From Patellaria atrata CBS 101060 (Eukaryota): DNA of 64,000 nt. Shown piece after piece: positions 31,376 through 35,983 of the stretch (the stretch's first letter is position 1; the number at the start of each line of letters is the position of its first letter). Under the pieces are notes generated by a model. The model did no database searches and was not told where the DNA came from. It was given only the letters and a program-made list of their open reading frames with translations. The stretch lies in contig MU006111.1 of NCBI GenBank assembly GCA_010093705.1, positions 186,001 through 250,000 of the forward strand. Reading direction: 5' to 3'. Both the position numbers and the translations under genes were made by a program.

Positions 31376-32537
31376 ATGCACTTGCACACCATCCTTACCT
31401 GGTTCAGTCCAACCTACTCCGCCCTCTTCTCCCCCCTCCTATGGTCATACCGCTGGCGTCTCCTAGCCTTCCAACCCCTCGCCCTCCTCATCAACAGCCT
31501 CAAATACCTCCCACTACTCTTTTCACCCCGATACACAGTCCTGCGCATCCCCGTCCGCAACAAACGTACCGTACGAGCTCTGGTCTTCCGCCCCCCCCCA
31601 GCAACCCAACTCAGACGCAAACACATCGCGCAGATTCCTGGCACCCTTACACCTCGACATCCACGGCGGCGGCTTCCTAGGCGGCATCGCAGAGATGGAC
31701 TTCCCCTTCTGCAGCCGCCTGAGCGATCTTACGGGCACCGTCGTGGTTTCCACCGAGTACCGCCACGCGCCCGCTTACCCGTTCCCCGCCGCTCATGAGG
31801 ACGTGGACGATGTCGTGGATTGGCTGTTCCACAACGCGGGATCGGAGCTGGGTGCGGACCGAGGGATGTTTACCGTGAGCGGGTTCTCCGCGGGCGGGAA
31901 CCTGGCGTTGGCGGTGAGTCAGGGGAGGCGATGCCGGAGGGGGGAGAGGATGAAGGTTAAGGGGAGTGTGACTTTTTATGCGCCTGTAAGGATGCCGTAT
32001 TTCCTTTTTTGCTTTCTGGTCGGTTCCGAGTTGTAGGGAGTCTGCTGAGTGCTGTTTTTTGAGCAAGGTCGATTTGAGGGTTCCGCCGGAGAAGAAGCCT
32101 GTTCCGCCCGGTTATCCTAAGATTGATCCACTGAGGTTCTTGCTGCCTTTGTATGACTCTTATGCTGGACAGGGGAATCCACGGGAGGTCACGGATTCAA
32201 GGTTGCATCCGATATTGGCGGATGTGGAGACTTTGCCTAGGAATATGCTGTTCATCATTCCAACCATTGATATACCGCTGCACGAGCAGCTAACTTTCGT
32301 CGAGCGGATGAAAGCAGACCTGCATAAAAAGGGAGTCAAAGAGACTGAGAGGAAAGTGGAAAGTATTATCTTCGAAAAGGGGTTTCATGGATGGCTAGAA
32401 GGTATGTTAGGGGTATAGTTTGACTCCAAGTGCTAAGCATAGTAGTGCCTTCGTTTGCGATCGACGAACAAACGAGAACTGAAGCCTTCAATGCTGCATT
32501 CCAGTTCATAGGAGAGATCCATACGAGATATAGCTGA
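31376..32537 (+). CDS. Alpha/beta hydrolase (HSL/carboxylesterase family) with an apparent frameshift in a C9 run
   Basis: LHLDIHGGGFLGG, EYRHAP..FPAAHED, GFSAGGNLA and FHGWLE, with two introns. The N-terminal frame differs from the HGGG frame by one extra C at 31591-31599. Confidence 0.8.
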
Positions 32538-32782: not shown

Positions 32783-33374
<592 letters not shown>

Positions 33375-34065
33375 CTATCAGCCTCAAAAAGAAGAGGATT
33401 GAAGGTAAGAAGTAATATTACCTAGACAAACGGATTGTCCTCCTCAGTACACTGCAGGTGTTAGGTAGAAAAGATTTCGAATATTGGACGTTGAAGTATA
33501 ATATCGCAGTGTGGTGGCGCTAATGCGGCTGGGATTTCTAAGCGACACCGGCTGACGGTTAGTCCGCCTTGGCATCGGCTGTTGGCCCCGCAACCATCGT
33601 GCAGGTACTGTTTACACCAGATTATCTGCACCTAGGCTCAGTCTCATGCATATACCCATCTGATATTTTCATCCTACACTCAATTTTGCATTTCTGCAAT
33701 CTGAACTCGAAAAGTCTTAACCTCACTTAAGAACTACTTAGAAGAACATCTTTAATTTACAAAACACACTCGACACTCTTCCGAGGGAGCAAGCTTACTT
33801 TCCGTCTACTCCCTGCACGAAGCAACTCCGGCTCTAAAGCCGAAGAATATATATCGAGAAATACAAATCAATATTTTCCTGTACTGAGAAGGAGGAATTG
33901 AGTTTCTCTCCGCCCGGCGGACGCAGTGCTAGCTGCGTGAGGTATGAAAAGTCTCTCGTATAGCTCATGGAGAACTGTGCTAACAACGGAATGTTCAGTT
34001 ACGGACCCAGAAGATATCCCATATATCTTAGACAATTTTCCAACCGGACTCGACTTGCATTCAAT

Positions 34066-35983
34066 ATGCTGTCCAATCCGTCCTCGAGCATCCAAAAGCG
34101 GCGTCAAATGCATAGACGACAAAACTCAACACCGTCTCTCGAGGTAGTGAACATGCCATCACTTCCTGCCATACCGCAGAAGAAGATCCAACACCGAAGG
34201 GGAATGAGCCTAGACCAAAGAGTCTCCGTCATTGCACCATTCCCGGACCGGACGATAACAGCTAACAACCGACCCAGATCGCAGGATTCACACATGGTAA
34301 GTATTACTAACATAGGACAACAACAACCACAGCATTCCGTGCAGGTAACGCAGCAGCACGTACAAGCCCAGCCGGGCACTCAATACCAGAAAGAGGTACA
34401 AAAACAGGAACCACAAACAAGACCACAACCATCCGAGGAGCAGATAAGGAATCTACAAGAACAGATAAGATCAGTATATGGAGTTGAGGGAGCATTTATC
34501 GTACTTCCCGGAGCGGTACCAGCACCGACAAAGACATCACCCCAGGTGAAAACGGAGCATCTTGACATAGCTCCGATGCCCAGTAGTTTGAATGACCTCC
34601 CAGAAATAAATTTAGAACCCATGAGCGTAGGAAACAGCTTTGACTTTAAGATGGGTAGCCAAGGGGGCGATGTGGGATATGAATCTTCCTACTATTCGGC
34701 ATCGCCAGGAAGATCACCAATGGCATCTCCACATCAGCGATCAGTTGCAACCTTTCAAGGTCATAACTCGCGGTTGGGTATCAGTGGTGTACCACTGCTC
34801 CCGGTAGCAGAAAATATGAACGACTTTGATGCATTTCTTGCATCTCCTACCAGATCACCACTCTCACCAGGAGCGATGTCAATGACAGATTTGAATCTAG
34901 GGTTCGACGCTTCCATCGAAGCCACTGGTATCTCCCCAGAGGAGGTGCAGTCATACATCAGTGAGCAAGACCAGTCAACACACCGATGGACTTGCCTTTA
35001 TCCGGGGTGCGATAAGACATTTGGAAGACGAGAAAACATTCGATCCCACGTCCAGACCCACTTAGGGGATCGTCAATTCCGCTGTAACCATTGCGGAAAG
35101 TGTTTCGTAAGGCAACATGACCTCAAGAGGCATTCTAAGATCCACACTGGCGACAAGCCGTACAAATGTCCTTGTGGTGGAGGATTTGCACGACAAGACG
35201 CCTTGACGAGACATCGACAGCGAGGCGTTTGTGAAGGAGGCTTCCCGAGTGCAGCCAAGAGCACAGCGAGAAGGGGAAGGCCAAAGAAACAGAGACCGGA
35301 TCTTGAAGAACGAGCAGACAAGGCAAATAGAACTCGAAGAGCGTTGGCGTATGCATCATCATCCTCAGGGGCATCTCAATGCTCCGACGTGTTTTCGCCA
35401 ACTGGCAGCTTTGACGACTATGACCCTACCAGGATTGAGTTCACGGATCTGCGGTCATTAGAGGCGCAGCCATCAGAGCCGGCATCTGATCCATTTAGGT
35501 AAGTCATAATCCATCAGAACCGATACACACCGTACTAATATTGCCAGTTTTGATACAACATCAAGTCCCTACAACAGCGACGCCATCGATACCGCCGCCA
35601 CTTCATTCGACCTGAAAGCAGCCACAGACAATCTCTTCCAGCTCTCCACAGAAGCATTCACACAGACCCCCCCCATGTCACCGACAAACCAAAGCCCCGA
35701 GGCCAACGAAAACGCAGTTCTGGAGCTACTCAAGTCCTCAGAACCGAACAGTAAAGCCGGACCACCATCGAACCATCTCACAACGCCGCCAACATCGCCA
35801 GCACAGTTCTTCGACGAGTTGGATCAAGCCGTCGCTTCGTATGGAAACTCTAATCAAGCGATGGACTTCAGCATGTTTTGTGATGCGGGAGATGGGACGG
35901 TGTCAAGCCCGGAAGAGATTTTCAGTTCCATGACCCCCGAAGAGGCGTTGGCTACGTCTATGGCTTGGATTGATGCGTTGTAA
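34066..35983 (+). CDS. ACE2: C2H2 zinc-finger transcription factor, Swi5/Ace2 family
   Basis: HRRQNSTP, HRRGMSLDQR, CLYPGCDKTFGRRENIRSHVQTHLGDRQF and KPYKCPCGGGFARQDALTRHRQRG. Intron about 35499-35548. In-frame ATGs at 33967 and 33991 are alternative starts. Confidence 0.88.

Follow-up and report, generated by a model that had tools for sequence, protein, structure and literature searches.

Why would a translated exon carry the signals of an intron packed into 19 nt, and does selection hold them there as RNA? The question arises in exon 1 of a gene that homology identifies as encoding an Ace2/Swi5-type C2H2 transcription factor, in a 64,000-nt stretch of DNA from Patellaria atrata CBS 101060 (assembly GCA_010093705.1, contig MU006111.1, positions 186,001 to 250,000 of the forward strand; hereafter the window, whose own numbering we use). 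A sequence-only reading of this stretch had pointed to a donor, a TACTAAC branch site and a TAG within 34297-34315, encoding VSITNI, had stated that orthologs keep a VS.TN peptide here, and had suggested selection on the RNA signal. To judge from comparison with relatives, all three intron signals of what proves to be a 36-nt cassette are under purifying selection as RNA in Ace2/Swi5-type genes across the Pezizomycotina, and in relatives the cassette is retained and translated by default. We infer that its sites may also be used for splicing, and likewise with which partners and to what effect on the protein.

The motif was present as described: 34297-34315 reads GTAAGT-AT-TACTAAC-A-TAG and is translated in frame within exon 1 (GTA AGT ATT ACT AAC ATA, VSITNI). 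Its TAG, separated from the branch element by only 1 nt, probably lies too near the branch A for use as an acceptor; a study of Pezizomycotina introns sets 4 nt as the minimum distance from branch element to acceptor (PMC9024468). We bounded the cassette by GTAAGT and the first AG at least 9 nt beyond the branch A, so that the fused 19-nt motif is the 5' half of a 36-nt unit. The following features were read from the sequence, except the last, which comes from codon and DNA alignments.

34297-34332, plus strand: cassette of 36 nt and 12 codons (VSITNIGQQQPQ), in frame and stop-free.
34297-34302, plus strand: donor-like site GTAAGT, translated as GTA AGT (Val-Ser) and directly preceded by ATG.
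34305-34311, plus strand: branch-site consensus TACTAAC, with the branch A at 34310, the 14th base of the cassette.
34313-34315, plus strand: TAG, 5 nt from the branch A, within a conserved nAGGA block.
34316-34329, plus strand: AG-free stretch GACAACAACAACCA, whose three Gln codons are all CAA.
34330-34332, plus strand: in-frame CAG resembling an acceptor, 22 nt beyond the branch A.
34261-34284, plus strand: upstream GCTAAC (34261-34266) with CAGs at 34275-34277 and 34282-34284.
34282-34377, plus strand: island of conservation of ~96 nt, at the nucleotide level and at synonymous sites, in a poorly conserved N-terminal region.

The cassette has the canonical U2-type signal set, with a GT donor, a CTRAY branch site and a YAG acceptor. 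Excision had been expected to shift the reading frame; this holds for the 19-nt unit, whereas removal of the unit defined by comparison, which ends at the CAG at 34330-34332, would keep the frame. In-frame CAGs ending at 34332, 34344, 34353 and 34356 and the upstream GCTAAC with its CAGs were also found where the earlier reading had placed them. An upstream TACTAAC..CGCAG comparable to the element at 34261-34284 was seen only in loci L001 and L014; the CAG codon at 34282-34284 was the only codon used in 26 of 26 sequences (alignment column 195).

Within the window, the pattern GTAAGT-N0-9-ACTAAC matched once over both strands, against a mean of 0.02 in 100 shuffles, two of which also reached one match. 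Taken alone, this single match is weak evidence, and a chance occurrence in a Gln-rich coding region could produce it; comparison with relatives is decisive. Of 80 metagenome loci encoding relatives of the gene (all counts are over related sequences), 40 had exactly one occurrence of the strict donor-branch pattern; each fell within the gene match on the plus strand, and those in the distinct sequences that we read were orthologous in position. No other strict-pattern match was found elsewhere in the fetched loci on either strand. Together with the invariance of synonymous sites described below, this recurrence refutes chance, to which we give negligible weight. The VS.TN peptide of the earlier reading was borne out both in homologous proteins and in DNA.

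The codons of the motif were nearly fixed. Val-Ser was encoded by GTA AGT in all 34 distinct donor-carrying sequences, 33 of which had the extended donor GTAAGTA, and Thr-Asn by ACT AAC in nearly all sequences. The codon between these pairs varied (ATT, AAT, ATG, ATC, GCT or ACT), and in some sequences there was none or there were two; the donor-branch spacer was 0, 3 or 6 nt while both hexamers persisted, with the branch A 11-17 nt from the donor G across distinct sequences. The codon alignment proposed by the earlier reading was clearly positive. It comprised 30 open reading frames (ORFs) that were distinct in sequence, several only slightly (e.g., L003/L004 and L005/L006), and 165 columns qualified, meaning that one degenerate amino acid filled 80% or more of the rows. 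A single codon was used in 11 of these 165 columns, 10 of which fell within alignment columns 195-230; by region, 10 of 13 qualifying island columns had one codon only, compared with 1 of 152 elsewhere (Fisher p ~1e-12). The ten island columns were Gln CAG, Val GTA, Ser AGT, Gly GGA, Gln CAA, Gln CAG, Ala GCG, Gln CAG, Pro CCG and Gly GGC. In the zinc-finger columns of the same sequences the amino acids were invariant, yet two to six codons were used for each, and synonymous sites there were free to vary while those of GTAAGT and ACTAAC were fixed, as the selection on the RNA signal suggested by the earlier reading would predict.

Codon preference is ruled out as the cause, because the codons fixed in the island were not those preferred outside it in the same ORFs: there GTA had a share of 21% among Val codons, ACT 24% among those for Thr, GCG 20% for Ala, CCG 18% for Pro and AGT 7% for Ser, and the share of CTA was 12%. 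A DNA alignment of 28 diverse sequences gave invariant GTAAGT, ACT.A., AGG, ACA.CA, TGC, CGCA and CCGGG between flanks that could not be aligned. The nAGGACAA block that follows the branch site (34313-34321) was fixed at synonymous sites in all loci (GGA 26/26, CAA 26/26), and we know of no signal that accounts for it. A structured RNA was rejected, as RNAalifold on 22 sequences returned no consensus fold (-3.16 kcal/mol, 0 covarying pairs); a search of 33800-34800 gave no Rfam match at E values up to 1. In the absence of a consensus fold and an Rfam family, the conserved units are best described as linear signals. Thus, purifying selection on an RNA signal, rather than on the peptide alone, is strongly supported by these alignments.

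Conservation extends to the acceptor half of the cassette. We anchored the AG-exclusion zone on the downstream GCG/ACG codon, which makes its definition independent of the positions of AGs. Between the branch site and the conserved position, Gln codons in 41 distinct sequences were CAA in 63 cases and CAG in 2, compared with 755 CAA and 645 CAG in the background of the same ORFs; as the rows are related, this skew describes a tendency seen across many lineages and should not be read as a probability. The anchored position was CAG in 35 of the 41 sequences, and three of the other six (L028, L030 and L033) had a CAG one to three codons further on; in the codon alignment, the CAG at 34330-34332 was the single codon in 27 of 27 rows (column 215). 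An AG at +5 or +8 from the branch site, in either case probably too near for use, was present in 38 of 41. The unit from donor to CAG was 30, 33, 36, 39 or 42 nt and in frame in 29 of the 34 distinct donor-carrying sequences, was out of frame in four (28, 49, 52 and 52 nt), and had no branch-like site in one.

The two halves were sometimes found apart. An ACTAAC-type element occurred in 41 distinct orthologous sequences, 11 of which kept it with the AG-free zone and no adjacent GTAAGT (L030, L031, L033, L035, L047, L048, L050, L065, L072, L077 and L079). Conversely, GTAAGT was kept with a weakened branch site in L037-44 (ATTGAC), L055 (ATTAAC) and L066, and also in L059, L061 and L073, where the CAG reads CAA. 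Both halves were lost in L063, in which a similar, partly kept peptide (LSTANPG) is encoded by other codons. Persistence of the acceptor half without GTAAGT in 11 sequences argues for a partner other than the abutting donor, and by this comparison the acceptor half, comprising branch site, AG-free zone and CAG, has a value of its own.

Proteins of named Sordariomycetes, of Helotiales-type relatives (Leotiomycetes) and of a Pyrenula record contained V-[S/G/R]-x(0-3)-T-N-x-G, and flanks of some loci matched named Helotiales proteins (the L060 group against P0305). In the Sordariomycete proteins the residue after Val was Ser, Gly or Arg, all of which, by the genetic code applied to protein sequences only, can keep a G at donor +5. 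In one alternative explanation the constraint is unrelated to splicing, the peptide VS.TN.GQ...QVAQ.H..QPG being conserved along with some other nucleic-acid function (an RNA-binding-protein site, rare codons that slow translation locally, or a DNA element within the gene) and the likeness to splice signals being coincidental. The peptide is indeed conserved, L063 keeps part of it with other codons, the constraint reaches past the splice-like motifs to TGC.AG.A.CGCAGCAGCA and CCGGGC, and several of the fixed codons (AGT, CTA, CCG and GCG) are rare elsewhere. Against this, the two best-kept hexamers are exactly the consensus donor and branch site, the three residues tolerated after Val can all keep the G at donor +5, avoidance of AG followed by CAG fits an acceptor, selection for rare codons would not fix one among several rare codons, and neither a fold nor an Rfam family was detected. 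We regard a constraint unrelated to splicing as rather improbable.

What the cassette might do depends on the gene around it, which we modeled as follows.

33964-35502, plus strand: long ORF holding exon 1 and the motif (program ORF list).
34066-35498, plus strand: coding exon 1 of the Ace2/Swi5-like C2H2 transcription-factor gene, with its ATG at 34066 (ORF and translation).
34987-35235, plus strand: three C2H2 zinc fingers (Pfam zf-C2H2 and zf-H2C2_2).
35499-35547, plus strand: intron 2, 49 nt, GTAAGT ... TACTAAT ... CAG, at a position common to orthologs.
35548-35983, plus strand: coding exon 2, with stop codon TAA at 35981-35983 (sequence and ORF).
33942-33998, plus strand: candidate intron in the 5' untranslated region (5'UTR), 57 nt, GTATGA ... 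GCTAAC ... CAG, with its putative branch A at 33983.

From the ATG at 34066 through exon 1, intron 2 and exon 2, the model comprises 622 codons. Its N-terminus (MLSxxxSSIQ..HRRQNSTP) is alignable with orthologs, and the C-terminal ..WIDAL of exon 2 resembles homolog P0005. The position of intron 2 is supported by orthologs found both as read-through ORFs and in spliced form; its branch A (35538) is the 40th base, giving a donor-to-branch distance of 39 nt with 9 nt remaining before the acceptor. The window protein (P0001) matched zf-C2H2 (E 3.9e-10) and zf-H2C2_2 (E 2.2e-11), the finger region was without amino-acid change across 35 aligned homologs, and the best homologs were Dothideomycete proteins with full-length similarity at 45-64% identity (E 1e-139 to 1e-103). 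The names of homologs in their sources, which are annotations only, included 'Cell wall transcription factor ACE2', 'regulatory protein SWI5' and 'metallothionein expression activator'. By homology and Pfam content, then, the gene is an Ace2/Swi5-type C2H2 transcription factor, as the earlier reading had named it. The accessible part of a paper on thmea1 describes a 1,446-bp gene that lacks introns (PMC6076916), which we judged by its length to be a different, shorter gene and uninformative here.

Two features lie upstream of the cassette. The candidate 5'UTR intron ends 67 nt before the ATG, and its putative branch A is the 42nd base, 15 nt before the acceptor. Of 38 upstream regions, which represent several fungal classes, 31 contained a GT..CTRAY..YAG candidate; it ended 43-135 nt and mostly 63-87 nt before the ATG, an unusually stable position for an intron of that kind. 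Within the N-terminal coding region are two conserved HxRxxS motifs, HRRQNS (34108-34125) and HRRGMS (34198-34215), which fit the consensus of NDR/LATS (Cbk1) kinases and are putative sites of phosphorylation.

We slightly favor the reading that the cassette is a selected but mostly unused node of alternative splicing that normally stays in the transcript and acts as an in-frame exitron, as an alternative acceptor or as both. In this reading it would be kept in the mRNA and translated, splicing would be rare or conditional, and the core would be the acceptor half. If that half were joined to the abutting donor, 12 codons would be removed in frame in the manner of an exitron, an outcome we put forward only tentatively. 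If its partner were instead a donor further upstream, for example the one in the candidate 5'UTR intron, the start codon and the N-terminal regulatory region, including both HxRxxS motifs, would be lost; we consider this somewhat doubtful. With the donor only 13 nt before the branch A, U1 and the branch-point-binding protein (BBP)/U2 could hardly sit together, and competition for space would make use of the sites low or switch-like.

Several observations weigh against use of the cassette as a splicing node. Contig ORFs from Logan, JGI and ENA were called without splicing, as the read-through forms P0003, P0039 and P0066 show. The transcript-type contig L023 aligned to genomic L024 in two blocks, lacked the 51-nt GTTAGT..TAG intron homologous to intron 2, and ran uninterrupted through the cassette. 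All 13 contig ORFs that have intron 2 removed and cover the region kept VS.TN (P0014, P0128-P0132, P0216, P0053, P0054, P0057, P0094, P0104 and P0110), and all 10 placeable Sordariomycete contig ORFs kept the segment (an eleventh had no anchor, and some start inside the segment). No spliced form was found among the assembled contigs of relatives, assemblies being prone to drop minor isoforms. Gene models that omit the segment look like ab initio guesses of predictors, because the lengths they remove differ. The accessible text on short U2-type introns of Pezizomycotina reports a 42-nt minimum as used and a donor-to-branch distance that always exceeds that from branch to acceptor (PMC9024468); the cassette, at 36 nt, is below this minimum and has the reverse geometry (its branch A lies 13 nt beyond the donor G and 22 nt short of the acceptor G), which the two ordinary-looking introns of the gene, intron 2 and the 5'UTR candidate, do not show. 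Independent loss of the donor and acceptor halves in some lineages makes a pure exitron model insufficient. Finally, the Met that many Dothideomycetes have just after the acceptor is Val (GTG) in the window, and a product of upstream-donor splicing would be without that start codon here.

The same contigs decide against a constitutive small intron misread as an exon by ORF-based reading. A perfect donor, branch site and acceptor speak for such an intron, as does removal of the segment in many NCBI gene models, which we count as a supporting point for intron-like signals. The segment was missing in 7 named NCBI models among the first 120 matches listed, and in models P0192, P0213, P0300, P0322, P0305, P0314 and P0327, and the three named Helotiales models are among those that lack it; of the Sordariomycete NCBI models, 68 kept it, 31 lacked it and 10 could not be placed (31 of 99 anchored models without it). 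From the same donor, models of related species removed 33, 36, 57 or ~200 nt, and we rejected segment-dropping models as evidence of splicing because their ends disagree. In addition, the unit is stop-free and a multiple of three in the 29 of 34 sequences in which the conserved CAG provides the first suitable AG, and L023 and the 13 contig ORFs lacking intron 2 keep the cassette, which is therefore present in the mature mRNA of relatives and is not a constitutive intron there. This explanation is contradicted for relatives, and we consider it very improbable overall.

Many contig ORFs had as their start the first Met within the cassette or immediately downstream of it (P0215, P0017, P0004, P0041, P0382, P0386, P0415 and P0452), and a MQAAQ start was seen in 13 Botryosphaeria-type contigs. 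We considered such ORFs (P0215, P0017 and P0452) as possible upstream-donor isoforms or internal starts and found them unusable, because an ORF caller takes whatever Met comes first beyond a contig end, and starts differed among near-identical contigs. Contigs seem often to break at the cassette, which could reflect an isoform branch, chance, or k-mers that different species have in common in the conserved island.

The earlier reading had offered a mutually exclusive splice switch or a docking site for U1, U2 or BBP, proposals that the sequence leaves plausible. Under non-productive docking, U1 on GTAAGT and BBP/SF1 with U2AF or U2 on TACTAAC..CAG would sit too close together for catalysis, and the complex would retain the mRNA in the nucleus, delay export or direct part of the mRNA to decay, thereby setting the level or timing of the factor with no spliced product. 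The donor is the least variable element and is extended (GTAAGTA in 33 of 34), the branch A is only 11-17 nt from it, all transcript-like contigs keep the segment, and each half persists without the other, as would be expected if the factors bind independently. Reported precedents are spliceosomal cleavage of BDF2, a non-intronic gene (PMC3792478), and decay-promoting introns (PMC4695336). Docking would have no need, however, of a conserved AG-free stretch and a near-invariant in-frame CAG, which are hallmarks of second-step acceptor choice, and we consider it unlikely, though it is the strongest competitor of the splicing-node reading.

A bolder version of the splicing reading would make the cassette a steric switch across the subphylum, in which the donor is fused to the branch site and first binding by U1 or by BBP/U2 decides the fate of the mRNA. 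The transcript would be left whole, would lose 12 codons, or would have its 5'UTR donor spliced to the internal acceptor with loss of the start codon and the kinase-regulated N-terminus. We offer this as speculation that is probably wrong in its full form. If true, the spliceosome would act as a sensor that determines the isoform or dose of a RAM-pathway regulator of cell separation, in a layout conserved since the radiation of the Pezizomycotina.

How does such a node compare with known systems? Exitrons have been defined from transcript data in plants and human. In the BDF2 and fission-yeast decay cases, donor-to-branch spacing is reportedly normal and the effect was shown by cleavage products, and the isoforms of Candida albicans Ace2 are said to differ in their N-terminal region. 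Exitrons are exonic introns (Marquez et al., 2015; PMC4484396, accessible text), and the cassette resembles them in lying inside a protein-coding exon, having canonical signals, being stop-free and a multiple of three, and being translated when retained; it differs in being only 36 nt (30-42 nt in the DNA set), in having a branch site that abuts the donor, and in being known here from sequence rather than from excision. A literature search whose coverage left out subscription journals, and which saw its sources in part, found no fungal exitron. In budding yeast, spliceosome-mediated decay acts on BDF2 (PMC3792478), and fission yeast has decay-promoting introns (PMC4695336); in both cases splice signals in a non-productively spliced mRNA set expression. 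Unlike these, the Ace2 cassette has a conserved exclusion of AG of the acceptor type, and it is described here at the DNA level.

In a stwintron, according to the accessible text of the Pezizomycotina study, an internal intron interrupts a splice element of an external intron (PMC9024468). The introns and stwintrons described there share with the cassette the same consensus donor and branch elements, and dense packing of signals is known in the subphylum; the cassette differs from them in its 36-nt length, reverse geometry, lack of nesting and retention, its donor and branch elements being intact and adjacent with no second complete intron within the 36 nt. The microexon switch of Trichoderma Xlr2 (PMC11121469, accessible text) is likewise a tiny alternatively spliced unit that alters a transcription factor of a filamentous fungus, but it affects another gene, is a microexon and not a micro-intron, and has transcript evidence. 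The N-terminal isoforms of Candida albicans Ace2 concern the same transcription-factor family but, as far as the accessible text goes, arise by alternative translation initiation and not by splicing (PMC4398349). In keeping with the earlier description of the element as undescribed, the same literature search, which excluded subscription journals and covered its sources in part, found no paper on an exonic splice-signal element in Ace2/Swi5.

An element that several classes of filamentous fungi conserve as nucleotide sequence inside the coding exon would add a layer of RNA processing to an Ace2/Swi5-type regulator. Cell separation and morphology are governed by factors of this type, as are virulence-related traits in several pathogens, and the factors themselves are generally regarded as controlled mainly through phosphorylation and localization. 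The cassette would also be a compact natural test case for the smallest spacing of donor and branch site that still permits engagement of the spliceosome. On the practical side, published protein sequences of this regulator are inconsistent, because annotation pipelines disagree at the cassette.

Some minor observations concern individual relatives. The models of Fusarium graminearum (P0345) and F. culmorum (P0363), compared with F. venenatum, lack HNVLREAQ or TNTNNTG beside the cassette and have V-G rather than V-S, which may reflect either decay of the island in that group or faulty models. The frame of L001, the closest relative among the DNA loci, is shifted by a single additional base that follows MQVAQQQRP (2700-2800). 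On manual inspection no sensible acceptor for a frame-compensating intron was found there, and an indel or assembly error is likely. NCBI models of Coniosporium species (P0005 and P0018) start at MQVAQ or take the wrong frame at this frameshift site.

On the opposite strand of the motif, an antisense reading was also considered and rejected, since GTTAGT and CTTAC in the reverse complement are donor- and branch-like but match more poorly. The ORF on that strand and the neighboring genes are listed below.

34104-34379, minus strand: ORF opposite the motif (program ORF list).
32921-33374, minus strand: two ORFs of one gene split by a short intron, presumably a ubiquitin-ribosomal protein fusion.
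31467-32418, plus strand: ORF pieces with GGGFLGG and GFSAGGNLA motifs and introns between them, which we take to be an alpha/beta-hydrolase gene.

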